From Candidatus Kaiserbacteria bacterium (lineage in GTDB: Bacteria; Patescibacteriota; Minisyncoccia; Phycocordibacterales; Phycocordibacteraceae), in NCBI GenBank assembly GCA_963699165.1, contig OY969413.1:852562-916561 (forward strand): a DNA stretch of 64,000 bases. The letters run 5' to 3'. The translations under genes and the position numbers were made by a program. Of the stretch, positions 9,076-54,101 are shown piece by piece. Under the pieces are notes generated by a model. The model was not told the origin of the DNA, searched no databases, and worked only from the letters and a program-made list of their open reading frames with translations. Each line of letters opens with the position of its first letter. Within the stretch, counting starts at the first letter, position 1.

Positions 9076-10143
9076 ATGAATAAGGAAATTCGCGTTTCCA
9101 TCACGCCGGGCACTATTTTTGCGGCGCTGGGCATTGTCCTCGGCGCGTATTTGCTGTGGGTGCTGCGCGATTTGGCGCTACTCGTGCTCACTGCCATCGT
9201 CATCGCTTCGGCTATCGAGCCGGCCGTCTCGTTTTTTACGCGCCGCCGCATGCCGCGTTTCATCAGTGTGATGCTTGTGTACCTTTTGGTTCTCGGTTCG
9301 ATATTTGCGTTTCTGTATTATTTCTTCTCGCCGATTATCGAGGATGCCGCGAATTTTCTCTCGAGCGTTCCGCAGTATTTGAGTACGCTGAACGCGGCGA
9401 CGCCTTTTTCAAACGCTGCGAGCACGGCGGGGTTCACGAGTGCGCAACAGCAGGCGCTGCAGCCCTTCATGCAAACGCTTACGTCGCTTCAAACGGCGAG
9501 TTCGTACGGCGTGCTGCAGCTTTTCTTTACGTTCTTCGGCGGCATTTTCTCGTCGCTCATCGTAGTGGTGCTTTCGTTCTATTTTGCCCTGCAAGACACC
9601 GGCATTGACGATTTCCTTCGTCTCGCCATGCCGGTTGCGCATGAGGCGTATGCCGTCGACCTCTGGCGCCGCTCGCAGAAAAAAATCGGCCTTTGGATGC
9701 AGGGACAGGTATTGCTTTCGGCGCTCGTCGGCATTTTGACGTATCTCGGCCTGCTCATCATCGGCGTGCCGTACGCGCTTCTGCTCTCCGTCTTCACCGC
9801 GATGGCGGAAATTATTCCGATTTTCGGTTCGCTTATCGCGGGCGCGATTGCGGCGATAGTTGCGTATTATTCCGGCGGTCTCGCGCTTGCCGCAATCGTC
9901 GCCGGTCTTTTCATCGTCATCAATCAGTTTGAATCCAATCTCATTTATCCGCTCATTGTTCGCAAAATCGTCGGCCTGCCGCCGCTCCTAGTGCTTGTCG
10001 CGCTTATGGCCGGGTATGCGCTTGCCGGGTTCCTCGGTTCGCTGCTTTCGGTTCCGATTGCCGCCGTCGGTCTCGAATTTATCAACGACTTCGACAAGCG
10101 AAAACGCAAAGAGGCGCATGCCCGCGCCCAAGCGTCCGCATAA
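9076..10143 (+). CDS. AI-2E family transporter (PerM/UPF0118) membrane protein
   Basis: 355 aa polytopic membrane protein; C-terminal …NLIYPLIVRKIVGLPPLLVLVALMAGYALAGFLGSLLSVPIAA typical of the AI-2E family. Confidence 0.7.
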   Translation: MNKEIRVSITPGTIFAALGIVLGAYLLWVLRDLALLVLTAIVIASAIEPAVSFFTRRRMPRFISVMLVYLLVLGSIFAFLYYFFSPIIEDAANFLSSVPQYLSTLNAATPFSNAASTAGFTSAQQQALQPFMQTLTSLQTASSYGVLQLFFTFFGGIFSSLIVVVLSFYFALQDTGIDDFLRLAMPVAHEAYAVDLWRRSQKKIGLWMQGQVLLSALVGILTYLGLLIIGVPYALLLSVFTAMAEIIPIFGSLIAGAIAAIVAYYSGGLALAAIVAGLFIVINQFESNLIYPLIVRKIVGLPPLLVLVALMAGYALAGFLGSLLSVPIAAVGLEFINDFDKRKRKEAHARAQASA

Positions 10144-12955: not shown

Positions 12956-12965
12956 AACATGTATA

Positions 12966-13075
12966 CCGTTAGAAATCGCGAACGCATCAATTTGAATAAC
13001 ACCATGGCAACTATTACTAGCACTAATCGAATAGATACCGGCGTTGTTGAAACGTCCGCGTCCTATTTCTAACGG
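12966..13075. repeat. CCCGTT-palindromic intergenic element, copy 3 (arms CCGTTAGAAATCGCGAACGC / GTCCGCGTCCTATTTCTAACGG)
   Basis: Inverted terminal repeat (11 bp perfect plus an imperfect extension). Starts 11 nt after the rpsF stop and ends 1 nt before the ssb ATG (13077). Interior shares ATTACTAGC with copy 2. Confidence 0.7.
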
Positions 13076-13076
13076 T

Positions 13077-13526
13077 ATGTACCTCAACAAAGCATTTCTC
13101 TACGGCAATCTTACCCGCGACCCGGAGTTGAAGGCGCTTCCGTCCGGCCAGCAGGTCGCATCCTTCGGCATTGCAACGAACCGCACGTACAAGGACAAAA
13201 ACGGCCAGAAGCAGGAGGCAACCGAGTTCCACAACATCGTCGCATTCGGCCGCACCGCGGAAGTCATTGCGCAGTATATGAAGAAAGGCCGCCCGCTGTT
13301 TATCGAAGGCCGCATCCAGACGCGCTCGTGGGAGGGCAAGGAAGATGGCAAGAAGCAGTACCGCACCGAAATCGTCGTCGACAACTTCCAGTTCGGTGCC
13401 GACGGCGGACGCAGCGGGGCAGGCGAAGGCCGCGCATCCGCGCATGATGAACAGCCGGCTCCGAAGGATTCCGACGAGATTAAGTATCCGGACGAGGAAA
13501 TCAATCCGGAAGACATCCCATTTTAA
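13077..13526 (+). CDS. ssb: single-stranded DNA-binding protein
   Basis: MYLNKAFLYGNLTRDPELKALPSGQQVASFGIATNRTYKDKNGQKQEATEFHNIVAFGRTAEV… OB-fold, Gly-rich tail ending in acidic …EDIPF. ATG at 13077 preferred over the TTG at 13044, which lies inside the repeat. Confidence 0.9.
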   Translation: MYLNKAFLYGNLTRDPELKALPSGQQVASFGIATNRTYKDKNGQKQEATEFHNIVAFGRTAEVIAQYMKKGRPLFIEGRIQTRSWEGKEDGKKQYRTEIVVDNFQFGADGGRSGAGEGRASAHDEQPAPKDSDEIKYPDEEINPEDIPF

Positions 13527-23916: not shown

Positions 23917-24027
23917 TTCTAGCGCTAGCTACGGTTCTTGAATCTGTGGAAGTTTAACTTTCACAAGGTCCGGCTAGGAAATTGGCCTAGCAGCAAAAAC
24001 CACCTCGAAAGAGGTGGTTTTTGCTTT

Positions 24028-24063
24028 TGTGGTATGCTTTTTGATATGGATATAACAAGAATC
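24028..24063 (+). repeat. 37-bp direct repeat, copy 1 (tgtggtatgctttttgatatggatataacaagaatc)
   Basis: Near-identical to 25343-25379. The two copies bracket the REP array plus RAYT. The copy contains a putative -10 (TGtGGTATgcT) and the first codons (ATGGATAAAACAAG) of the downstream TPR gene. Confidence 0.6.
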
Positions 24064-24448
24064 TGTGGAAGTTTAACTTTCACAAGGTCCGGCTAGGAAA
24101 TTGGCCTAGCGTGAGCGGCCGAAAGGTCTGTCTCAAAGAAAGAACCCCCGTAAGGGGGTTCTTTCTTTTTATCCATGAGCATCTGTGGAAGTTTAACTTT
24201 CACACTGACCCAATCCACCTCCATGAGCATCTGTGGAAGTTTAACTTTCACACTGACTCAATCCACCTCCGGAAGGTCTGACGTTCCGGAACCGGAACCG
24301 GACGCGGCTAAGGGTTGGCCTAGCAGCAAAAACCACTCGCGAGAGGTAGTTTTTTGCGTTTGTATTTCTCTCACATTCCCCAAATGTAAGCATTTGTGGA
24401 AGTTTAACTTTCACACATGCTTGCTTTCCATGTATTTTGTCTGCGGAG

Positions 24449-24489
24449 GTCGTCGCCCTGTGGAAGTTAAACTTCCACAGGGCGACGAC
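24449..24489. promoter_or_regulatory. perfect 41-bp palindrome (20-bp arms) GTCGTCGCCCTGTGGAAGTT a AACTTCCACAGGGCGACGAC
   Basis: Exact reverse-complement symmetry around a single central A, 6 nt upstream of the RAYT ORF. Its core equals the REP consensus made perfect. Confidence 0.7.
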
Positions 24490-26176: not shown

Positions 26177-28368
26177 AATATATCGAGCGCGCGTATCCGT
26201 GGCTTCTCCTTTCGCCGGTCCTCCTGCCGGTCGTGATTGCGGGCGGACTCATTTACCCGTATCTCGTTCCGAAGACGCTATCGTTCTATGCGATTTCTTT
26301 TTTGGCGTTCGGAGTATTTGCAATCCTCGCCGCTAACGGCCGCACGTTTTTCTGGTCGCGGCTTTGGCAGCCCGAGACATGGTTTCCTGCCGCGCTTCTC
26401 GCGCTCGCGTACATCGCGAGCGCGTCGGGCATGGATTTCTATCAGAGTTTCTGGAGTTTGTTTGTGCGCGGCGACGGACTTCTGATGCTGACCTGCGCGG
26501 TCGGCAGTTATTATTTGATTTTGCTGTATGCCGACCGCGCGTTTTTTGAGCGTTTGCTTCGCGCAGTCGCGGTCATCGGGACCTTTGTCGCGGTGTATGG
26601 CATTGGCGAGTGGATGCTCGGCGGCGGCTCGCGCATCGGCGGCCTGCTAGGCAACGCGGAATTTTTCGCCTGTTATCTCGGCATCGCTCTTTTCGCGACG
26701 CTCGCCGCCGCCGAGTCGCTCCCGCGCGCGTGGCGCAATGCCGCGTATGCCGGCGCTGCTCTGCAGATAATCGCAATAGTGTTGAGCGCGACGCGCGGAT
26801 CGATACTTGCGCTCCTGGTCGTCGCGCTCGTCTATCTCGCGTATGCCGCGTTAAAAGGAAAAGGGAAGCGCCGCGCGTATTCCGCGGGCCTGCTCGCCGC
26901 GCTCGTCGTTTTCGGAGGGTTGTTCTTCGCGTTTCGCGGCGAACTTGCGAAGTCGCCGTTTGCGCCGATTGCGCGCGTCGCCGCAATCTCGGCCTCCGAT
27001 GCCGACGTCGCGAGCCGGCTTTTCATTTGGAAAAACATGGCCGCGCAGATTGAACGGCATCCGTGGCTCGGCATCGGCTCCGAACACATCGACGCGCTGT
27101 TCAATAATTTCTACGACCCGACGCAAATAGAGGAAGAATGGTTCGACCGTTCGCACAATGCGTTTCTCGATTACTTTGCGCAGTACGGCATCGGCGGTTT
27201 GCTTCTTTACATCGCGATTATCGGAAGTTTCTTTACGGCCGCGGCGCGCGAAGCGCGCCGCGGCTCCCGCCGCGTTGCGGGGATTTTCGCCCTGCTTGCG
27301 GTTTTGTACGCCGTTCAAAACTTCTTCGTCTTCGACACCGTTTCTTCTTTCTGGCTTCTGCTTGCGCTGCTCGCGACGTTGACCGCGGCATCGCTTGGCA
27401 AAACCTCCCGGGAAGCGGTGCCGCTGCCGTCGTGGACGCGCTACGTCTCTTGGATTTTTGCGGTCGTCCTTATCGCGCTTCTCATTCCGGTTTCGATTTG
27501 TCCGGCGCTTGCGGCATATGACCTTGCGCATGCCTACGGCTATCAGATTTTAGACCCCGCGAAGAGCGCCGCGTATCTATCGGAGGGTTACGCGCTTCAC
27601 ACCTATGGCAATCTCGAATACGGCTACGAAGCGTACGACATGTATGCCTATCAGCAGTCCGAGATGCTCACGGGAGCGCAGCGTGCAAATGCGTATCAAA
27701 CCGCCGTTTCTATTTTGACGTCGAATTTTGGAAATTACACCTATGATGCGCGCACGGCGCTCGACTTGTCGCTTGTGTTTTCGTTAGCGCCGCAAGGGGC
27801 GGCGGTCGACCAAAAATTGTATTCAAGCGCGCTCGAGCGCGCCATTCGCCTGTCACCGAAACGACCGCAGTCCTGGTATATCGTGGCGAATGCTTCCATC
27901 GCGCAAGCGAATACCTACCCGCCATCTTCCTCGGACCGTATCGCCGGCTACAATGCCGCTGCCGGTTTGCTCTCGCAATACATCGCGCTCGTGCCGAATT
28001 TGTCGATGCCGCATTTCCTTCTCGCCCAGCTTGACTTTGCTTCCGGCGATGCGGCCGCAGCCGCAGCGGAAGCGGCGAAAGGGAAACAATATTACAAGGA
28101 CGACCTCGAGACGGCGCGGCACGCCGCAGGGTATTACGAAAATGTTAAGGACTGGACGGATGCCGCGTTCTTCCTTCGCGAAATCGTTCGGCTCTCTCCG
28201 ACCGACACCGCATCATTGTATGACCTTGCAAAGGTGTTGTACCTCTCGGGAAATCCGGCCGAAGCAGATGCTATTGTTATAGAGTTGCGGACAACTCATC
28301 CGGAAATACTTCCGACCGACCAGAATTTCCTTGCCGCTATTACTGCCTATGAATCCCGTTCGAAATAG
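26173..28368 (+). CDS. O-antigen ligase-like (Wzy_C) polytopic membrane protein with C-terminal TPR domain
   Basis: 731 aa with about 12 TM helices including the Wzy_C-like segment (…GAALQIIAIVLSATRGSILALLVVALVYLA…), then a C-terminal soluble TPR-like region. Stop codon lies inside the first CCCGTT element. Confidence 0.55.
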   Translation: MKYIERAYPWLLLSPVLLPVVIAGGLIYPYLVPKTLSFYAISFLAFGVFAILAANGRTFFWSRLWQPETWFPAALLALAYIASASGMDFYQSFWSLFVRGDGLLMLTCAVGSYYLILLYADRAFFERLLRAVAVIGTFVAVYGIGEWMLGGGSRIGGLLGNAEFFACYLGIALFATLAAAESLPRAWRNAAYAGAALQIIAIVLSATRGSILALLVVALVYLAYAALKGKGKRRAYSAGLLAALVVFGGLFFAFRGELAKSPFAPIARVAAISASDADVASRLFIWKNMAAQIERHPWLGIGSEHIDALFNNFYDPTQIEEEWFDRSHNAFLDYFAQYGIGGLLLYIAIIGSFFTAAAREARRGSRRVAGIFALLAVLYAVQNFFVFDTVSSFWLLLALLATLTAASLGKTSREAVPLPSWTRYVSWIFAVVLIALLIPVSICPALAAYDLAHAYGYQILDPAKSAAYLSEGYALHTYGNLEYGYEAYDMYAYQQSEMLTGAQRANAYQTAVSILTSNFGNYTYDARTALDLSLVFSLAPQGAAVDQKLYSSALERAIRLSPKRPQSWYIVANASIAQANTYPPSSSDRIAGYNAAAGLLSQYIALVPNLSMPHFLLAQLDFASGDAAAAAAEAAKGKQYYKDDLETARHAAGYYENVKDWTDAAFFLREIVRLSPTDTASLYDLAKVLYLSGNPAEADAIVIELRTTHPEILPTDQNFLAAITAYESRSK

Positions 28369-28712
28369 CGGACACGGAAGAATACCGTCAGTACGATACG
28401 AGATAGTGTGCCACTGCAAAAAGGGGGCGGTAGACATGATGGTACCCCGCCGCGTCCTATTTCAAACGGGATGAATCCCGTTCGAAATAGCGGACACGGA
28501 AGAATACCGTCAGTACGATACGAGATAGCGTGCCACTGCAAGGGAAGGGCGGTAGACATGAATGGTATCACCCGCGTCCTATTTCAAACGGGATGAATCC
28601 CGTTCGAAATAGCGGACGCCTATCGCACCAAAACGCCTGGTATACTAGTTGGGTACCACCAGTAATTTTAGGCTCCGCTCACCGGTAGTGTCTGCGTCCT
28701 ATTTCAAACGGG
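28355..28712. repeat. three tandem CCCGTT-palindromic elements (28355-28470, 28477-28592, 28599-28712)
   Basis: Each unit is CCCGTTCGAAATAGCGGAC… …GCGTCCTATTTCAAACGGG followed by ATGAAT/ATGAAC. Units 1 and 2 are about 95% identical internally; unit 3 has a different interior with a TACTAG motif. The upstream gene's TAG stop lies in the first left arm (gaaaTAGcgg). Confidence 0.75.
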
Positions 28713-29070
28713 ATGAACAATCAAAAAAATAACAATCAATCATCTCCGCGGCCGAGCGTGCTTCCTTTTTTCGTCGAGTTCGTTAAATTTGCAACCGTTT
28801 TCTCGCTTATCGTTGCGATAGCTCTTTTTACGCTTCGCGTGGCAAGCGCTTTTTCGCAGTAATGTACATTTTTGCCTGGTTCTGGTACAGTGCTCCCGTA
28901 CGAACCGAAGACCGTAGGTCCCGATTTTGTCCAAGAGCAAAGCGATTGGAAACAAAATCGAGGATGCCAACAAGTCCGTTTGTCGGCGCCTGATTTTAAT
29001 CGGATAAACCCTACGTAGGGAGACCATAACAAGGTCGAACTCTCCTTTATTTCGTTCGTACGTACAACGT

Positions 29071-31740: not shown

Positions 31741-32810
31741 TTCAGATACATTTGGCAGTCCTCATAACCGAGGATATATGCACATCAGAAGCAATTTCAG
31801 GGGTACGAAGGGCTGGTTGAGCATGTGGGAAAGGACGATACGATTGCGGCATATGCGGAAACCAAAGGAAGTCGACAGACGGGTGAAGATATTGGGATTC
31901 TGGGACATGCACGGGACGGAGGCCGCATACGACGCCTTTGGCACCTCGGAGCGCACCTTGTATCGCTGGAAGGAGGAACTCAAAGCCCACGAGGGCCGCA
32001 TTGATGCACTTGACCCGAAGAGCACTGCGCCGAAGGCGCGTCGAAGGAGGACTGTTCTGCCCGAGGTCGAGGATTTCATCATCCGCGAACGACAGGCGCA
32101 TCCCCGGCTTGGGAAAGCAAAGCTTGCCGTTCTCCTGCGCGAAGAAGGGTACTCCGTGTCGGAGTCATACGTTGGGCGGGTCATTCTGGATTTGAAGAAC
32201 CGCGGTCTGCTCCCGCAGCAGAGCCGGCTCTCGTTCCACGCACGTACGGGCAATCACACGGAAACACCGCAGAAACGCCGTACCAAGCTTCGCCGCACCG
32301 GCAAGCGCGGCATGGAGCTCGATACCGTCGTCCGCTTCATCGACGGCGTGAAGCGGTACGTCCTCACGGCAGTGGACGTGGAGCGGAAGTTCGCCTTTGC
32401 GGGCGCGTATACGAACCACTCGTCGAGAAGCGCGGACGACTTCCTTCGCCGAGTCATCGAGGTTTGCCCCTTCGATATCGACGAGTTGCAGACCGACAAC
32501 GGGAGCGAGTTCGCCAAACACTTCGAGGATGCCTGTGCCGAACTCGGGCTCACGCACTTTCACACCCGCCCCCGCACTCCCAAGATGAATGCCCACGTCG
32601 AACGATTCAATCGCACCGTCTCCGAGGACTTCATCATGCTGAATCGGGGCCTGCTGCGGGACGATATTCATTCCTTCAATCTGAAGCTTGTCGACTGGCT
32701 GATTTGGTACAACACCAAACGCCCGCACCAGTCGCTCGGCATGGTGTCCCCCTTGCGGTATATTGTGTGTACATTAACCGTCGGGGACTGCCAAAAGTAC
32801 TGGACGCGTA
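31741..32810 (+). mobile_element. IS481-family-like insertion sequence (about 1.06 kb), ends approximate
   Basis: Single DDE transposase ORF. Imperfect terminal inverted repeat ttCAGATACATTTGGCAGTCC (31741-31761) versus GGACTGCCAAAAGTACTGga (32785-32804). The ORF stop lies 17 nt beyond the IRR as aligned. No clear target-site duplication seen. Confidence 0.5.
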
Positions 32811-32821
32811 CAGGCTATTGA
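31778..32821 (+). CDS. DDE transposase, rve integrase-core (IS481-like)
   Basis: N-terminal HTH, rve catalytic core with D (TAVDVE), D (QTDNGSEF) and E (HVERFNRT; …HTRPRTPKMNAHVERFNRTV…). Confidence 0.75.
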   Translation: MHIRSNFRGTKGWLSMWERTIRLRHMRKPKEVDRRVKILGFWDMHGTEAAYDAFGTSERTLYRWKEELKAHEGRIDALDPKSTAPKARRRRTVLPEVEDFIIRERQAHPRLGKAKLAVLLREEGYSVSESYVGRVILDLKNRGLLPQQSRLSFHARTGNHTETPQKRRTKLRRTGKRGMELDTVVRFIDGVKRYVLTAVDVERKFAFAGAYTNHSSRSADDFLRRVIEVCPFDIDELQTDNGSEFAKHFEDACAELGLTHFHTRPRTPKMNAHVERFNRTVSEDFIMLNRGLLRDDIHSFNLKLVDWLIWYNTKRPHQSLGMVSPLRYIVCTLTVGDCQKYWTRTGY

Positions 32822-33639
32822 CGCATTTACGGCACTCGTCTATACTCCGTCCTACGTGTCTACGAACCGAAAGAACCAAGTGATTTTCGAAGCGGATAGG
32901 CCGTCATAGGCCCGCGCGTTACGTAAACGCGAAAGAACCGCTCGAGGCGGTTCTTTCGTTTCAAAGAGGCACTGTAATTTGACATACGAATATCATTGGT
33001 TGAACCGTCCTTAAAAAGACGGTTCATGTCCGCGACTTGTCGTGGACGAAAATCGAAGTTAGAACGTTAATGATTGTGGTATATAGGTCTCCGTACGAGA
33101 GACAATTAAGAGTGCACGGTGGATGCCTTGGCCTTGGACGGCTATGAAGGACGCGACTAACCTGCGAAAAGCTTCGGGGAGGCGGTTTGTAGCCTTTGAT
33201 CCGGAGATATCCGAATGGGGAAACCCTCCAGTTTTGAACTGGAATCCGCGGAGTAACGTCTGCGAGAAGCGAACCCGGGGAAGTGAAACATCTCAGTACC
33301 CGGAGGAAAAGAGAACAATATGAGTTGCGTTCCATTCAAGCGTATGTTCGTTTGAATGGAACGCGACTCGCGTGATACCCCAAGTAGCGGCGAGCGAAAA
33401 GGGAAAAGCCCAAACCTCTTTCTTCGGAAAGGGGGGTTGTAAGATGTGAACATCGTACTTGTACGAAAAGAGTTATCAATCGTCTGTATAACAGAAGCTG
33501 CTGGGAAGCAGCGCCCAAGAGGGTAATGGCCCCGTATGTGAAATGCATGACGACTCTTGTTCATATTCTTGAGTAGCTCGAGACACGAATAGCTCGAGTG
33601 AATCTGCCGGAACTAACCGGTAAGGCTAAATACGTCCAA

Positions 33640-33680
<41 letters not shown>

Positions 33681-35120
33681 CACCCCGAGAGGGGAGTGAA
33701 ATAGAACTGAACCCGTGTACTTACAAGGGGTCGGAGCGGATGCTTGCATCCGTGACGGCATGCCTATTGAAGAATGAGCCGGCGAGTGTGTGTATCTTGC
33801 TTAGCTAAGCCCTTCCGGGGCGGAGCTTAAGGGAAACCGAGCGTGAATAGCGCGTCTGTAGGATACATACGACCCGAAGCCAGATGAGCTTGCCATGAGC
33901 AGGGTGAAGTTTGTCGAAAGACAAATGGAGGCCCGAACCCGTAGGTCGTACAACGCCTTGGGATGACTTGTGGTAAGGAGTGAAAAGCTAATCGAATCTG
34001 GGAATAGCTGGTTCTCTCCGAAACAGCTTTTGGGCTGGCGTTGCAATAAGTGTACGTGGGGGTAGAGCACTGGAAGGGACCAACAGGGAGAAATCTCGTG
34101 GTTCCTATCAAACTCCGAATACCACGTGCCCGTGCAGCAGTTAGTAGGTGGGGGCGAAGCTCCATCGAACGAGAGGGGAAGAGCCCTGATCGCCACTTAA
34201 GGCCCCTAAATCGACATTCAGTACATCCACAAGGAAGTGAGGACTCATAAACAGTGAGGATGTTGGCTTAGAAGCAGCCACCATTTAAAGAAAGCGTAAC
34301 AGCTCACTCATCGAGAGTCCTTGCGCCGAAGATGATCGGGGTTAAATGTCGTGCCGAAATTGCGGGTTTGGTTTGTTCTGTATACAAACCAAGCGGTAGG
34401 AGAGCGTTCTGTTCGCTATGAAGCTAAAGGGATAACCCATGGTGGAGCGTACAGAAGTGAGAATGCCGGTACAAGTAACCACAATGCGGGTGAGAACCCC
34501 GCACGTCGAAAGACCAAGGTTTCCTCAGCTATGGTGATCAACTGAGGGTTAGTCGGGCCTAAGGGGATGGCGAGAGCCGCACCCGATGGACACACGGTCA
34601 ATATTCCGTGACCGTTTATAGAGGCAATGGAGTGACGGACTGCTGTATGTACTGCCGGTAATTGGATTCCGGTTGGCAGTGCGAGGGCGCGCGTTAGGTA
34701 AATCCGGCGCGCATTACCCCGAGCACTGACACAATTTTCTCCTTCGGGGGAAGAGAGAGTGCAAAGCGCGGTTTCAAGAAAACCTTCTACGCATCAACTC
34801 TATAGACGACCGTACCGCAAACCGACACAGGTGGTCAGGTCGAGAAGACCAAGACGAACGAGTAAGATGTCCTCAAGGAACTCGGCAAAAAAGCGGCCGT
34901 AAGTTAGCGATAAGGCCTGCCCTTCATCCGCAAGGATGGGGGGCCGCAGTGAAAGTTTTCCTGGCAACTGTTTACCAAAAACACAACTCCCTGCAAACTC
35001 GTAAGAGGAAGTATAGGGGGTGACACCTGACCAATGCCGGAAGGTCAACCACGGTGGGTATGCTGCTTCGGTAGTATGCTGGACTGTGTAAGCCCCGGTG
35101 AATGTCGGCGATAACTATAA

Positions 35121-35920
35121 TCGTGGACTCGCTACCACCTGCGCAAGCAGGTCATGAGTAGGGCGATTGTAAAATTCGGCCAAATGCTGGAACAACTGTC
35201 TCGAAAAGAGTTAGAGCATACGCTACCGTGTAGGTAACAATGCGTATGTGCAGTCAATCAGCAGGAAAGGCCGATGCAGGTATTGCCCACGCAAAATAAT
35301 AACTTGCGTATGGACAACACTACAAAAGAGCTCCTGAAACTTTTTCACGGCAAACGAGACGCTCTGCATTATTATGTTGCAGGTTTCGTTGACGGAGAAA
35401 GCAGTTTTAGTGTAGCGATTCTTAAAAATCCCTTCAAAAAAGAAGGGTGGCTGATTAATCCGTGTTTTCAGGTGTATCAACATCAGAATCACAGAGAAAT
35501 CTTGGAGTTATGCAAAGAAGTATTTAAGACCGGAAGAATATATCGCAAAAGCGGTACACATCCCGTCCTAAACTTCAGTATTGACTCAATACGGAATCTA
35601 AAAGAGAAGGTAGTACCTTTCTTCGATAGATATCCGCTCATAACAAAACGCGAATCGTATCAAAAATTCCGGGACATTGTAGTATCAATGGACAGGAAAG
35701 AGCACTTGACCTCTAAAGGGTTTGAGCGTTTGGTACGGCTTGCGTACAGTATGAATCAGCAGGGCAAAGGTCGCAGGAGAACTCTTGAAGAGGTTCTTGC
35801 GACTCAGCCCAAACCTGCATCGGAATCCTCAGAGACTTTACGCCGAACTCACGCTTAGTGGGCAGTGAGATGATAAAGTCCAATCCTCATGGCGACATGA
35901 GGGGCTTCGAGAAATCGAAA
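35121..35920 (+). mobile_element. group I intron in 23S (E. coli position about 1917 region) with LAGLIDADG ORF
   Basis: 23S exon …aactataa | … | cctaaggtagcg…; the E. coli sequence AACTATAACGGTCCTAAGGTAGCG is interrupted by about 800 nt containing ORF 35274..35858. Confidence 0.7.
35274..35858 (+). CDS. LAGLIDADG homing endonuclease (intron-encoded)
   Basis: LHYYVAGFVDGESSFSVAI (LAGLIDADG motif) plus a second half-motif; lower GC than the host; inside the 23S. Confidence 0.8.
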   Translation: MQVLPTQNNNLRMDNTTKELLKLFHGKRDALHYYVAGFVDGESSFSVAILKNPFKKEGWLINPCFQVYQHQNHREILELCKEVFKTGRIYRKSGTHPVLNFSIDSIRNLKEKVVPFFDRYPLITKRESYQKFRDIVVSMDRKEHLTSKGFERLVRLAYSMNQQGKGRRRTLEEVLATQPKPASESSETLRRTHA

Positions 35921-36588
35921 TGCCTAAGGTAGCGTAATTCCTTGTCGGGTAAATTCCGACGTGCACGAATGGTGTAATGACTGGGAAACTGTCTCGAGGA
36001 CTCGCTCGGTGAAAATGCACTTCCGGTGAAGATGCCGGATACCTGTAGTTAGACGAAAAGACCCCAGGAGCTTTACTACAGCTTCGTATTGGCCCTGCGG
36101 GATACATGCGTAGCATAGATGGGAGACATTGAAGCATTCCTTTCGGGGGATGTGGAGTCGTCAGTGAAATACCATTCTTGTATCTTGCAGTGTCTAACCC
36201 CGTTGGGATCCAACGGGGGACCGTGCGTGGCAGGTAGTTTTGGTGGGGCGCTATCCTCCTAAAAAGTAACGGAGGAGTCTATTAAGGTTCTCTAGGCGCG
36301 AATGGAAACCGTGCCGATAGTGTAATGGCATAAGAGAGCTTAACTGCGAGGGGTACTTCCCGAGCAGATGCGAAAGCAGAGCATAGTGAACCGATGGTAC
36401 GCCTTAGATGCGGCCAGAGATTAACGGATATAAGTTACCCTGGGGATAACAGGCTAGTTCCGCCCAAGCGTCCTTAGCGACGGCGGAGTTCGGCACCTCG
36501 ATGTCGGCTCACCATAGCGCGGGGCTGGAGAAGGTCCCAAGCGTTTGGCTGTTCGCCAATTAAAATGGTACGCGAGCTGGGTTCAGAC

Positions 36589-36995
36589 CGTTCAGCAACT
36601 AACAAGAGTTGGTGATTGAACGGTCTGAATCCACGAGGCAATTGTTAGGTGCGTGGAGACGCACTATGCGTCCCGGTAGAGACAAGAACCTCACCAAGGT
36701 TCTGGCTCGCTAAAGCGAGCGTCTCTAACGGGATGCGAAAGACATACTCACGGCGGTCCCGAATAGGAATATTCGGGAAGCAAATCAACTGATATCGGTG
36801 AAATCCAATCTCATTGTGTATGAGAGGACAACACCGAGGGAATTCTTTGCAATCGCAAAGAGACCCGTAGAGACTGAATGTTGATGCTCCAGGCTAAAAC
36901 AATCTCGAAGAGATTGTTCGCCCGAACTTTTGCAACGCAAAAGTTTTAGGGAGTAAGTTACAGTCCGATCCTCCGAGTAATCGGAGTTAACTAGA
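36589..36995 (+). mobile_element. ORF-less group I intron in 23S (position about 2593, I-CreI-type site region)
   Basis: Conserved 23S GGGTTTAGAACGTCGTGAGACAG is split: gggttcaga | about 407 nt | (t)gcgtgagacagg. No ORF. Contains a CCCGTT-palindromic element copy (36671-36733). Confidence 0.6.
36671..36733. repeat. CCCGTT-palindromic element copy inside 23S intron (arms TCCCGGTAGAGACA / GTCTCTAACGGGA + TG)
   Basis: 13-14 bp arms nearly identical to copy 1 (5022-5102), in the same orientation, ending ...aacgggATG. Interior forms two short hairpins (agaacc…ggttct; gctcgc taaa gcgagc). Confidence 0.5.
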
Positions 36996-37050
36996 TGCGT
37001 GAGACAGGTTGGTCTCCTATCTACTACAGGCGTTGATTCTTGAGGAGGGT

Positions 37051-37849
37051 TGTCCCTAGTAAGAAATTGCTACTTCAGAGAGAGATCTCTGATGACAACA
37101 TGGCTTATAACGGTGGAGTCTAATGTGCTTCCGGTTTTAGAGTTTCATATCCCGCGGTCCTGTGGATATTTAACTCGCTTGAGGACCAGAATGCTACTAT
37201 GATAATACCGTGGGAAGTCGACCAAATAAAGTTGCAGATTATGCGTATATTGCGGGCTTCTTGGATGGAGATGGCAGTCTCATGCTCCAAGTAAAGAAAC
37301 GCAATGATTCGACCAAGGGAGTGCGCTTCATGGCGACAATATGTCTGTATCAAGACAGTCGCCACGATGTGCCACTCTCATGGATTCGAACGCGGCTCAA
37401 GTGCGGATACGTTTCTAAACGAAACGATAGTATGACGGAATTGCGCATCAACGGTTTCTCGCAGGTGCGAGAAACTCTAGAGATGCTTCAGCCGTATCTT
37501 CGTTTCAAAAAGAAACAAGCAAGACTCTTGATTCAGGCATGCAAAATGCTCGAGCGAGACACGCTTCGCACTATGAAGCCGAAAAATATACGCAAGATTG
37601 TCGATCTCTTGTTGCTCATACAAAATGAAAACTATATGAGCAAGAGACGAAAGACAAAAGAAGAACTGCATCAGATACTTGGTTTGACCCCGTAACGACT
37701 TAGGTTGAAAGATACCTAGACTCATAGGTTGAGGAATCATTTCTCAGAGAATGACTGCTCCTATGGGTAAGATGCCATCATCCTAACCCCGAATAGCGGA
37801 GAAGGATGAAGATATAGTCTGCGCTCCTGGAAACAGGGGAACGAAGCGA
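37051..37849 (+). mobile_element. group I intron in 23S (between CCTAGTA and CGAGAGGACC, about position 2650s) with LAGLIDADG ORF
   Basis: Conserved CCTAGTACGAGAGGACCGG is split (…gtccctagta | about 800 nt | cgagaggaccgg…). Contains ORF 37210..37695. Confidence 0.7.
37210..37695 (+). CDS. LAGLIDADG homing endonuclease (intron-encoded)
   Basis: YAYIAGFLDGDGSLMLQV motif; 161 aa (single-motif size). Confidence 0.8.
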   Translation: MGSRPNKVADYAYIAGFLDGDGSLMLQVKKRNDSTKGVRFMATICLYQDSRHDVPLSWIRTRLKCGYVSKRNDSMTELRINGFSQVRETLEMLQPYLRFKKKQARLLIQACKMLERDTLRTMKPKNIRKIVDLLLLIQNENYMSKRRKTKEELHQILGLTP

Positions 37850-38219
37850 CGAGAGGACCGGGATGAACTGACCTCTGGTCTACCAGCTGTCCTGCCAAGG
37901 GCACCGCTGGGTAGCTATGTCGGGTTGCGATAACCGCTGAAAGCATATAAGCGGGAAACGTGCTCCAAGATTAGGAATCGTTATGAGACACCTCGGAGAT
38001 GACGAGGTTGATAGGCTCTAGATGGAAGCGCCGCAAGGCGTGGAGTCGAGGAGTACTAATATGTCCAGTCTCTCGTGCGGAACTCTGTATATCAGTCATT
38101 CGTTCGCACTCGGGCGAACGGTTTGCAAAACAAACCGTTGTAGCCGCTTTGTTTTTCAATACCAATGATTTATCGTAGCGTCGAACATGTAAGTGTTCGG
38201 TTCCAATTGTGTGCTTTGT

Positions 38220-50424: not shown

Positions 50425-50978
50425 TATACCGTCTTCCGTCAGAAGACCCCTTGCCGGGCCTTCTCGGCGGGGCGGTTTTCTGATTTTTTGGGGCAAGTTC
50501 CCCCGCACATTTAAAGGCCGCTCCGGCTATTGACTTGCTTTGGCCGTTCATATAGTATGCATCTACTGCCTCGAAAGAGGCGGGATTTCTTTTGCTCTAG
50601 TTCGTTGACATTCTAAATACGTGTTAATTCCCGCGACGCGCAGCGTCGCGGGAGAAAGATGTGTGAATTCTTTTGTTCCGCCTATTCTTATTGAGAGTTT
50701 GATCCTAGCTCAGGGTGAATGCTGGCGGCGTGGATAAGTCATGCAAGTCAAGGGGGCCCGCAAGGGCAACCGGCAGACGAGGTAGTAACACGTAGGTACG
50801 TCCCCCGAAGTCGGGCATAGCCATCCGAAAGGATGGGTAATTCCCGATAGTCCCGCAAGGGTAAAGGTTTTTCGCTTCGGGAGCGGCCTGCGTAGTATCA
50901 GCTAGTTGGTAGGGTAACGGCCTACCAAGGCTACGACGCTTAGGGGAGCTGAGAGGCTGACCCCCACCGATGGGACTG

Positions 50979-51678
50979 CGATAAAAGTTGTCGCCTTGGG
51001 GAGTAATCCCCAATGATTAATCTTGCTCATAACGGTGAAGCCTGACTGATGGGTGTATAATAATACCCATCAAAGGTAATACCGTGGGAAGTCGACACTA
51101 TCTTTCAGACGCATATTTGGCAGGATTCTTGGACGGAGACGGCTCTGTTGTGGCAACGCTTGAGCGATACCACAGCAAGCGGTTTCCGTATCGTGTGCGC
51201 ATCAAGGTGAATTTCACCCAACATGCAAAACACAAAGATAAACTGGCACTAATGCAAGAGGCGCTCGGCGGTTATGGAGTTATCCGAACCAATGCGCGCA
51301 AAAATCTTGCGGAGCTGGTAATCCAAGAACGAAATCAAGTACAAGCGGTGCTCGCGCGTCTCGTGCCATTTCTTCTAATAAAAAAAGACCAGGCAATTCT
51401 GGCTCTTGAAGTATTAGAGAAAATGAGCTCCAACGAGAAGCATAAACCGAGCACGTTGTCTGAAAGAGCGTATATTCGTATTCTGTCAGTAGTACAGAAA
51501 ATTCGTCGTTTGAATTCCCATACGGGAGGCAAACGCGAGATACGAGTGTTTGACCCCGTAACGACTGAATTTCCGGAGCAACCCGGAATGAAGACGGAAT
51601 CTTCGGATTCTGTAAGACGCAAGCCCCTCGCACGAACGAGGGTGAAAGTATAGTCTGTGCCATAAGAAATTATGGAAT
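50979..51678 (+). mobile_element. group I intron in 16S (after ...GGGACTG, E. coli position about 320s) with LAGLIDADG ORF
   Basis: Conserved …ACTGAGACACGG…CTCCTACGGGAGGCAGCAG is split: …gggactg | about 700 nt | aacgacggcccatactcctacgggaggctgcag. Confidence 0.65.
51084..51653 (+). CDS. LAGLIDADG homing endonuclease (intron-encoded)
   Basis: AYLAGFLDGDGSVVATL motif; 189 aa. Confidence 0.8.
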   Translation: MGSRHYLSDAYLAGFLDGDGSVVATLERYHSKRFPYRVRIKVNFTQHAKHKDKLALMQEALGGYGVIRTNARKNLAELVIQERNQVQAVLARLVPFLLIKKDQAILALEVLEKMSSNEKHKPSTLSERAYIRILSVVQKIRRLNSHTGGKREIRVFDPVTTEFPEQPGMKTESSDSVRRKPLARTRVKV

Positions 51679-52109
51679 AAACGACGGCCCATACTCCTAC
51701 GGGAGGCTGCAGACGAGAATATTCCGCAATGGACGAAAGTCTGACGGAGCGACGCCGCGTGATGGATGAAGTGCTTTGGTACGTAAACATCTTTTACCGG
51801 GGAAGAAATTATTGACGGTACCCGGTGAATAAGGGGCTCCTAACTCTGTGCCAGCAGGAGCGGTAATACAGAGGCCCCAAGCATTACCCGGAATCATTGG
51901 GCGTAAAGGGTGTCTAGGCGGCCATATTAGTCTCTCGTTAAATCCGCGGGCTCAACCTGCGGCATGCGAGGGAAACGGTATGGCTCGAGGGCGTAAGAGG
52001 TGCACGGAACTCATGGTGGAGGGGTGAAATCCGTTGATATCATGGGGAACACCGAAAGCGAAGGCAGTGCACTGGTACGTTCCTGACGCTCAAACACGAA
52101 AGCCAGGGT

Positions 52110-52143
<34 letters not shown>

Positions 52144-52727
52144 CCTCAACGTTGCTCGCTCGTTTTACGGAGTATCGACCCTCTGTGAGACTAAGCTAAC
52201 GCGGTAAGCGAGCCGCCTGGGTAGTACGATCGCAAGATTAAAACTCAAAGGAATAGACGGGGACTCGCACAAGTGGTGGATTATGCGGCTTAATTCGTCG
52301 ATAAACGAAGAACCTTACCAAGGTTAGAAATCCAGCTGCATCCAACTCGAAAGAGATGGAGCCTTCGAGGGTGCTGGACAGGTGATGCATGGTCGTCGTC
52401 AGTTCGTGGTTTGAACTGTTCCCTTCAGTGGGGTAACGAACGCAACCCCCGTTGTCTGTTGCCTATATGGTCAGGCGAGACTGCTCCCTCACGGGAGAGG
52501 AAGGTGGGGATGACGCCAGATCAGCATGTCCCTCTGATACCTTGGGCTGCACGCATAATACAATGGTCGGTACAACGGGTTGCAATGCCGTAAGGCGGAG
52601 CCAATCCTTATAAAACCGACCCCAGTACGGATTGAGGTCTGCAACCGACCTCATGAAGCCGGAATCACTAGTAATCCCGGGTCAGCCAAACCGGGGTGAA
52701 TACGTTCTCGAGTCTTGTACTCGGGTC

Positions 52728-53710
52728 GCCATGCGATCCGAGCATCTAGTTGGTGACTCTTGGAATAGAGAAGTCCAACCGCGCCGTGGCGGCGTGAAGC
52801 GAAATCGCAGTGTCGATACCGCGAGGTATGGCATGAAGGGTGAAAGTAGCAGTGTGTAGCGTGAACGCTAGTTTGTGGCGCCTAGAGTGGGAGATCCCGC
52901 GAGTACAGGGAGAATCCAGCCACACCAAAAGCTCTAGGCGTGTAGTGGCGTCGCGATACATATACACAGATGTTCGGGTTACCGTGGGAGATCTGTTATG
53001 TTCCTCGTGGTAAACTAACCTCGAGGTATGCGGATGAGCAATCATCGTAAATGACATGACAGAAGTCAGCAGAGGTCGTAGTACCGCCGTATGAAAGGTA
53101 AACGCAATACGCGTCTGCTTGAACCGGTAGGGAAGGACCGAATTCGTAGGAAGCCGCTCGACGGAGCATATGTTGCCGGATTTATCGACGGGGAAGGTTC
53201 CTTTTCCGTCAGTATCGGCAAACACGCGACTCTATCGCGCGGACTTGAAGTGCGTCCTGAATTTGAAATTGAAGTGCGTGCGGATGATCGAGAAATTCTT
53301 GAGCGAATTCTCGTTACTGTCGGCTGCGGAAGAATCTATGACTGCTCGTATGAGCGGTACGGATGGTATCCGCATGTCAAATACAAAGTGACGAGCACGC
53401 GCGAGATGGAGGAGATTCTCTTCCCGTTTCTCGATAACAATCCGCTCCAAGCGAAGAAAGCGGAATCGTATCTTCTCTTTAAAGAGATTGTGCTTTCGTA
53501 TCGGCGCAAGGAGCATCTCACCGATGCCGGTTTCAACAACATTCTCGAAACGCGCAATCGATTGCGAGCTCTCGGAAAGAAGGCTAAAACATTTCAGTTA
53601 TGAAATGTTCGCCCAATGAAGAGCTCGCACCTACGGAAACCGCTAGGGTGCAGGAAAGCTGCTTGCCCAGTGGTGTTTGTGAGAGTGGTAGTAATATCAC
53701 AAAACGCAAG
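52728..53710 (+). mobile_element. group I intron in 16S (within CTTGTAC|ACACCGCCCGTCA, position about 1400) with LAGLIDADG ORF
   Basis: …gaatacgttctcgagtcttgtac | about 980 nt | (at)accgcccgtcaagtcaagg…. Confidence 0.65.
53091..53603 (+). CDS. LAGLIDADG homing endonuclease (intron-encoded)
   Basis: AYVAGFIDGEGSFSVSI motif; 170 aa. Confidence 0.8.
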   Translation: MKGKRNTRLLEPVGKDRIRRKPLDGAYVAGFIDGEGSFSVSIGKHATLSRGLEVRPEFEIEVRADDREILERILVTVGCGRIYDCSYERYGWYPHVKYKVTSTREMEEILFPFLDNNPLQAKKAESYLLFKEIVLSYRRKEHLTDAGFNNILETRNRLRALGKKAKTFQL

Positions 53711-54051
53711 ATACCGCCCGTCAAGTCAAGGGAGCTGGGGGTGCCCGAAGGTCTGCCTTGCGCAGGACTACGGCAAATTCAGTGACAAGGACTAAGTCGT
53801 AACAAGGCACGGGTAGCGGAAGCTGTTCGTGGAACATATCCAAATTGGAACCGATATCGCCCGAAAGGCATATCATGTCGATACGATTCGCAAGAATCGT
53901 GAGAGATAGTACTCGTCTCTAAACGGTACTCGGAAGCCGGATAACGTAACCCGGTGGTCCTTCACACGAGAAAGCATCGCGGAGCTTCGCTTCGCATGTG
54001 TATACAATGCTTTCTCGTGTGTGGGGGAACAGAATAGGCGGAACAAAAGAG

Positions 54052-54101
54052 CGCACACAAACACAAATAAGCCCCTGCGGGCTTATTTGTGTTTGTGTGC
54101 G
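54052..54101. terminator. perfect 21-bp-stem hairpin (bidirectional terminator candidate) downstream of 16S
   Basis: cgcacacaaacacaaataagccc ctgc gggcttatttgtgtttgtgtgcg; preceded by a second inverted repeat (cacacgagaaagca…tgctttctcgtgtg, 53964-54024). Confidence 0.5.

Follow-up and report, generated by a model that had tools for sequence, protein, structure and literature searches.

The 23S rRNA gene of the window (the whole 64-kb stretch of DNA that was analysed) is broken by two introns, and the first of these contains a short palindromic element. The features of this region are as follows (slashes within motifs mark junction or insertion points, and numbers with the prefix L designate loci retrieved for comparison):

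33096-38067, plus strand: 23S rRNA gene, broken by two introns (Rfam LSU_rRNA_bacteria matches)
36578-36633, plus strand: long hairpin, an extended P1-type helix (inverted repeat, covariation)
36592-36997, plus strand: ORF-less group I intron, 406 nt (exon junctions, covariation in 46 homologs)
36649-36664, plus strand: small hairpin GUGCGU-GGAG-ACGCAC, just upstream of the insertion site (covariation)
36667-36670, plus strand: left TGCG target-site duplication (comparison with empty introns, e.g., L035, L097, L039 and L030)
36671-36733, plus strand: 63-nt palindromic MITE-like element (arms, fold, comparison)
36734-36737, plus strand: right TGCG target-site duplication (comparison with empty-site introns)
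36747-36758, plus strand: putative canonical internal guide sequence CUCACG/GCGGUC (complementarity to the ligated exons)
36758-36986, plus strand: intron core (covariation counts)
P2 36758-77, P3 36784-89/36880-85, P4 36795-800/36832-37, plus strand: intron core helices
P5/P5a 36804-28, P6 36838-66, P7 36870-75/36962-66, plus strand: intron core helices
P8 36886-36954, P9 36971-86, plus strand: intron core helices
38220-38333, 3' of the 23S rRNA gene: 5S rRNA (Rfam)

Several further features of the rRNA regions were recorded. The second intron (37061-37848) is group I-like (Rfam, 28.5 bits) and interrupts the sarcin-ricin loop, following the U that corresponds to E. coli 2656. The product of its ORF (37210-37695) is a LAGLIDADG endonuclease with one domain and 161 aa; its homologs number more than 2000, and many belong to Kaiserbacteria-type 23S rRNA genes. 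The names given to homologs of this endonuclease and of SSB indicate that the window comes from a CPR bacterium of the Kaiserbacteria/Minisyncoccia type. Relative to the bacterial 23S model, an insertion of 53 nt was found in domain I at approximately 33319-33371 (Rfam model position ~230). The 16S rRNA gene is unlinked, 12 kb downstream of the 23S-5S genes and thus in an unusual order (region 50660-54059). It appears to be interrupted by inserts with genes for two LAGLIDADG proteins (51084-51653 and 53091-53603), only 51498-52752 was aligned cleanly by Rfam, and a 29-nt inverted repeat (50660-88/54031-59) could be its processing stem. Just downstream of the 5S rRNA gene of L052 (835-949) and L063 (944-1058), Rfam gave tRNA matches of 115 nt (38 bits), which may be intron-containing tRNA genes.

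The junctions of the first intron were read from the sequence, the 5' exon ending with ...GGGTTCAGACCGT at 36591 and the 3' exon starting with CGTGAGACAG at 36998. A preliminary description had placed the insert at 36589-36995; its presence was confirmed, and its limits, which were off by 2-3 nt, were corrected to 36592-36997 (406 nt). The I-CreI-type location proposed for it also stands, as the junction follows the equivalent of U2593 (E. coli 23S numbering), which we take to be the I-CreI-type site. [quoted passage not shown] 2024; PMC11270868). The window intron was correctly described as ORF-less: the longest ORF fully within it has 51 aa, and an ORF of 55 aa only overlaps its 5' edge. The 23S 2593 intron is an ordinary intron of a known kind.

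Against the Rfam model Intron_gpI (RF00028) the insert scored 33.7 bits, below the gathering cut-off of 50, and this cut-off was reached by none of 12 homologous loci. The low score is a limit of the model, which sees this intron family poorly, and not a structural failure. Intron homologs were collected in two sets, 8 loci found by way of proteins homologous to the second intron's LAGLIDADG protein and 89 loci by a metagenome scan with the conserved 3' pattern; every retrieved homologous locus carried the intron at the same junction, with lengths from 250 to 706 nt. A secondary structure was drawn by hand on an alignment of 46 distinct introns, the P3/P7 pseudoknot being scored with separate bracket types. 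In this alignment 83.8% of the cells were paired, versus 30-43% with slid partners, and two-sided changes occurred at 41 pairs, the observed values being reached by none of 500 shuffles. Covariation was strong in P2, P4, P5, P5a, P6, P8 and P9, while P3 covaried at four of six pairs and P7 was invariant and 100% paired. The terminal G of the intron is G36997, and the junction ...ATG/CGTGAGACAG does not vary among the aligned introns. Because of the covarying core, the P3/P7 pseudoknot, the U·G pair, P10 and the final G, the insert is taken as a group I intron, as had been claimed, despite the Rfam score below threshold; to judge from its sequence, it is a genuine one, of the self-splicing type and without a homing-endonuclease gene.

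Two segments of the intron can bind the 5' exon. In the long hairpin, 36578-36595 (the last 14 exon nucleotides plus the first four of the intron) pairs with 36616-36633, and 94% of its cells were paired across the 46 introns. Intron position +1 covaries in this hairpin, and the sole exon polymorphism, A/G at 36586, covaries perfectly with an intron U/C (35 AU, 11 GC). A U-A pair stands at the splice site in 41 of the 46 sequences, and the hairpin offers no P10. The guide sequence lies 70-200 nt downstream of the long hairpin in the intron family and abuts P2 directly, which is the canonical arrangement. Read from the sequence, 11 of its 12 positions are complementary to the ligated exons: GCGGU with exon ACCGU leaves a U·G wobble at the splice site (46 of 46 sequences), and CUCACG forms P10 with CGUGAG of the 3' exon (97% paired; where C has changed to U, pairing with G is kept). 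Both segments compete for the last 5-6 exon nucleotides. We infer that 36747-36758 acts as the guide sequence in catalysis, the long hairpin serving as an alternative or auxiliary exon clamp.

The palindromic element consists of TCCCGGTAGAGAC, two mini-hairpins and GTCTCTAACGGGA, with arms of 13 nt and one G/T mismatch at 36676. It had been reported as a palindrome at 36671-36735 with arms of 13-14 bp like those of a copy at 5022, between ileS and recO; the palindrome and the arm match were both recovered, and the limits were revised to 36671-36733. With their flanks, the intron copy (ATGCGTCCCGGTAGAGACAA / GTCTCTAACGGGATGCG) and the ileS/recO copy (5017-5107) match at 36 of 37 arm positions. 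The 13-mer arm has seven matches in the window at no more than two mismatches, versus 0.91 expected, and none of 100 shuffles reached seven. The interiors, 37 nt in the intron copy and 56 nt in the ileS/recO copy, have no obvious similarity by eye. With such interiors, and with palindromic arms that read alike on both strands, the relative orientation of these two copies has no meaning, and the "same orientation" formerly ascribed to them was abandoned.

The element was predicted to fold into a closed three-way junction (about -44 kcal/mol, outer-stem pair probability ~1.0), and the predicted fold of the remaining intron was identical with and without it. It is located between the exon-binding hairpin and the small hairpin at 36649-64, on one side, and the guide sequence and P2, on the other. 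The small hairpin covaries at five of its six pairs and is present in 34 of 70 distinct introns. The site of the element is the 5' periphery of the intron, topologically the P1 loop, and not an extension of P6 or P9, as had been suggested for checking. Nor does the element bear on tolerance in a highly expressed RNA, as first thought: it should be missing from the mature rRNA, as it sits in a segment expected to be spliced out.

Comparison of the introns located the insertion precisely. The element was absent from all 89 metagenomic intron homologs retrieved, and it was found in only 2 of about 70 distinct introns, those of the window and of one other sampled lineage (L004-L008, five assemblies). 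The exact empty site, ...GCACTGTGCG-AAGACATAC..., is present in about 30 introns, where the window reads ...TGCG, the 63 nt, TGCG and AAAGACATAC. Approximately 30 introns that have the small hairpin read ...GCACTG TGCG AAGACATAC..., and in L035, L092 and L100 the sequence ...TGCG AAAGACATACTCACGG... is exactly that of the window minus 63 nt and one TGCG, so the insertion duplicated TGCG. The backbone nearest to the window intron, that of L035 (85.5% identity), is empty. As about 30 introns have the empty site and only one other lineage is filled, the comparison supports invasion of the intron by the element rather than an origin within it, and of the two origins proposed earlier it is invasion that agrees with the precise empty sites and with the TGCG duplication flanking the window copy.

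The insertion spot also hosts other small palindromes in L051, L067 and L083, which marks it as a permissive hotspot. A further mini-palindrome, CCCGCCACAC...GUGUGACGGG, was observed in the related introns L036, L044, L051, L059, L067, L069 and L083, at varying positions (P6 tip, 5' hotspot and P2 loop, the last twice in L083), a behaviour like that of a second mobile hairpin of small size. The P8 extension of the window intron (36892-36949) is formed by CUAAAAC, two mini-hairpins and GUUUUAG, another three-way junction, and is shared only with L044; other introns have a simple CCAGAACGG loop at this position. This extension points to mosaicism or recombination of the intron, or else to a further small insertion.

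The two filled introns, of the window and of L004-L008, are not sisters, the nearest backbones to the L004 intron being L083 and L039. This leaves two routes: two hits at one site, with the same orientation, or transfer of the segment by recombination. Arrival in the window intron through recombination or gene conversion with another filled intron, giving a mosaic, instead of transposition in the window lineage, is a possible route, although we consider it the less probable one. It agrees with the identical site, the same orientation and the shared loop UCACCAA of the window and L004 copies on backbones that are not sisters, with the conflict between the intron tree and 23S exon similarity, and with the P8 extension, near-identical in the window and L044 alone on backbones just 79% identical. 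However, an original transposition would still be needed, the duplication and the empty sites remain, and it is also plausible that RTGCG, as a preferred target, was hit twice independently, because the recO copy used the same TGCG.

The 64-kb window contains eight units of the element at six loci. Besides the intron copy, the following were characterized:

5018-5107, plus strand: closest sister copy, element 5022-5103 with TGCG duplications, in the recO start codon (empty sites in L222 and L224)
8957-9080, plus strand: longer-armed copy, element 8961-9076, in the start codon of an AI-2E transporter gene (orthologous empty site)
12960-13081, plus strand: longer-armed copy, element 12964-13077, duplication TGTA, in the ssb start codon (empty site in L226 and L227)
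28350-28717, plus strand: three tandem longer-armed units, 28354-28713, with TGAA between them, in the start codon of a 49-aa ORF (empty site in L004)

All four intergenic insertions of the window are inside the start codons (A/TGNN) of the downstream genes, and in each the ATG is rebuilt from the terminal A of the element and the duplicated TG. The stop codon TAG of ileS (5028-30) is within the left arm of the recO copy, and the ATG of recO starts at 5103; the copy at 12964-13077 lies between rpsF and ssb, and the 49-aa ORF downstream of the tandem units occupies 28713-28862. Pfam alignments begin at residue 1-3 of RecO and SSB. Syntenic relatives have empty sites at recO (...GCGA/TGCG/G...), ssb (...AACA/TGTA/CCTC...), the AI-2E gene (...GTA/TGGG/TAAGG...) and the 43-49-aa ORF (...TTA/TGAA/T...), and the ileS and recO genes of relatives overlap by 11 nt, which had been predicted beforehand. 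Small ORF regions downstream of Wzy_C in the relatives were considered as elements and rejected, being a conserved gene of 43-49 aa. In L009 and L010 the intron is empty; L009 has a copy of the 63-nt type upstream of the 5' end of the 23S rRNA gene (duplication CATA), and both loci have a copy in the 23S-5S spacer (duplication TTCG) with the two inner hairpins in reversed order. A different family of palindromic repeats, CTGTGGAAGTTTAACTTTCACA, was observed at 23933-24489, with six clear copies in both orientations clustered just downstream of an ORF of 1179 aa.

To describe the family, one genome per species was scanned with the pattern CCCGTTAGAGA-N30-60-TCTCTAACGGG, which gave at least 120 stretches. 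Members are non-coding, 52-134 nt long, and have 12-nt terminal inverted repeats, YCCCGTTAGAGA...TCTCTAACGGGR, the left one being YCCCGTTAGAGA(C) when 12-13 nt are counted. Among the matches listed, the hosts were many CPR lineages, Omnitrophota, Planctomycetota (five contigs of one genome), Nitrospirota (a 1.7-Mb contig), Desulfobacterota, Bdellovibrionales, Elusimicrobia and gammaproteobacterial MAGs. In 126 copies, the nucleotides directly outside the arms were complementary in 115 (C...G 76%, T...A 22%), and the next four positions were direct repeats, each 76-87% identical versus ~50% farther out, with a perfect 4-bp duplication in 84 copies. The target consensus was R/TNNA/Y and that of the duplication TNNA. 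A start codon at +1 followed by at least 80 codons was found at 16 of 254 ends, open frames from +1 being about twice as frequent as control frames.

Scans with the element gave one viral-contig match in IMG/VR and no match in a plasmid BLAST. A literature search for the arm sequence gave only unrelated primers, and one joining MITE and CPR gave nothing relevant. The element is small, non-coding and multicopy, with terminal inverted repeats, a fixed 4-bp duplication and orthologous empty sites at the intron site and at four operon junctions, and apparently represents a new MITE-like family, widespread and unnamed.

The interiors of the family are heterogeneous, those of most members being dissimilar and often unstructured. 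A two-hairpin interior common to all members was rejected: it was well paired in 25 of 124 distinct members (~20%), versus 11 of 620 shuffles (1.8%), and was paired at any level in 54 of 124. The window and L004 copies differ by compensatory changes in both mini-hairpins, which hint at selection on structure, unneeded for a purely neutral passenger. Those changes, the excess of well-paired interiors over shuffles and the position of all copies of the window and its relatives within transcribed regions could be expected if the hairpin were a functional structured RNA module, for instance a protein-binding or processing signal, placed for a role at the RNA level and not mere selfish DNA. We regard this as very improbable, given that both inner orientations occur inside one rRNA operon, that presence varies at orthologous sites of close relatives, that target-site duplications are present, that most interiors are dissimilar, and that no family matching the hairpin was found in Rfam scans (gathering and E-value). 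Derivation of the family from an intron substructure, the other origin formerly proposed, according to which the hairpin would be an original peripheral domain of this intron lineage that seeded the intergenic copies, accounts for the arms common to the intron and ileS/recO copies and is otherwise hardly credible, in view of the copies in the rRNA leader and the 23S-5S spacer in both orientations, the operon-junction copies with orthologous empty sites, the two filled introns whose closest relatives are cleanly empty, and the spread over many phyla, and 8-kb loci, without such an intron nearby.

Candidates for a parent element or for another identity were sought. In 1.4 Mb of retrieved loci, a search for long-range arm pairs with a matching 4-bp duplication revealed neither an autonomous element nor a transposase with such ends; the pairs detected enclose housekeeping genes (HlyD, PBP and ribosomal protein genes) and no transposases. 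About 300 nt upstream of the 23S rRNA gene, the window has a transposase gene of the rve type (IS481/IS3-like; 31778-32821, 347 aa), which has its own inverted repeats of 15 nt (region 31747-32799) and is absent from this place in the syntenic loci L004, L009 and L011. It was discarded as a parent, its inverted repeats (TACATTTGGCAGTCC) being unrelated. In integron attC sites the core sites are ordered 5'-RYYYAAC ... GTTRRRY-3'; the element has GTTAGAG ... CTCTAAC on both strands, the opposite order. Palindromes of the REP and IS200-IS605 types have no target duplication, adjoin a fixed tetranucleotide and form subterminal rather than terminal hairpins, and are contradicted by the variable 4-bp duplication and the true terminal inverted repeats. 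A ribozyme reading was rejected as well, the three-way junction being almost without unpaired junction nucleotides.

Taken together, a 63-nt MITE-like element is considered to have inserted into the 5' periphery of an ORF-less 23S-2593 group I intron, with a probability of about 0.85. As a non-autonomous DNA transposon it landed at R/TGCG/A, between the small hairpin and the guide sequence/P2, duplicating TGCG. It would be mobilised as DNA, through a trans-acting enzyme with 4-nt staggered cuts at RTNNAY-like targets. Transcribed within the pre-rRNA, the element would fold on itself into the closed three-way junction that was modelled; P1-P10 should not be disturbed because this fold is self-contained. 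It would then be discarded with the intron at splicing, presumably without harm, and the intron may act as a safe harbour in a gene-dense genome.

A broader reading is offered as tentative. According to it, these elements would constitute an undescribed, horizontally spreading family of tiny elements of CPR, Omnitrophota, Planctomycetota, Nitrospirota and other uncultured phyla, moved by an enzyme with 4-nt staggered cuts, adapted to ultra-compact genomes and sheltered in the safe harbours of self-splicing introns and rRNA spacers. The enzyme could be a LAGLIDADG-type endonuclease of the homodimeric kind, which is abundant, a candidate because two abutting element ends form a palindrome of half-site, 4 bp and half-site. 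As part of the same reading, stop codons in the arms and downstream starts rebuilt from the terminal A plus the duplicated TG may be adaptations to compact genomes.

The locus provides a clean bacterial case of selfish DNA nested in selfish DNA, with sequences before and after the event: a transposon in a ribozyme intron within an essential rRNA gene of a genome of roughly 1 Mb. The region from the exon-binding hairpin to P2 stands out as a permissive insertion hotspot of the intron family. With its sharp ends and target, the MITE-like family can serve to trace horizontal exchange between phyla of groundwater and sediment, and insertions that regenerate start codons suggest how mobile DNA persists where there is almost no intergenic space. 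Such hairpins can lower the covariance-model scores of introns, may disturb rRNA annotation and may shift gene-start calls in CPR genomes.

Among known systems, the intron shares its insertion site with the I-CreI-site introns of Chlamydomonas chloroplasts and with the CPR 23S-2593 introns, and has a group I core. Unlike them, its family scores below the Rfam threshold and has two exon-binding segments, and in the window lineage the intron hosts a transposon.

Correia elements of Neisseria, ERIC and the Rickettsia palindromic elements are comparators of the MITE type for the element. Bacterial MITEs and small palindromic repeats are alike in being short (63-120 nt here), without ORF, with terminal inverted repeats and a short duplication, present in many copies per genome, transcribed in operons and polymorphic in presence or absence. 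The QMITEs of Coxiella are a further bacterial MITE comparator (PMC5896051). Unlike all of these, the window family is without a known parent insertion sequence and has the same 12-nt ends in several phyla; its insertions in the window genome are exactly in start codons, with the ATG rebuilt, and one copy is inside a ribozyme intron.

In mitochondria, the palindromic GC clusters of yeast and the double-hairpin elements of Allomyces also occur in introns and in variable rRNA regions, within compact genomes that abound in group I introns and in LAGLIDADG endonucleases. They are tiny, transposon-like hairpin repeats with direct repeats of 2-3 bp that colonise intergenic regions, and their mobilising enzyme is unknown (PMC4478555). 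These elements are organellar and restricted to lineages, whereas the window family is found in free-living bacteria of many phyla and has defined 12-nt inverted-repeat ends and a 4-bp duplication.
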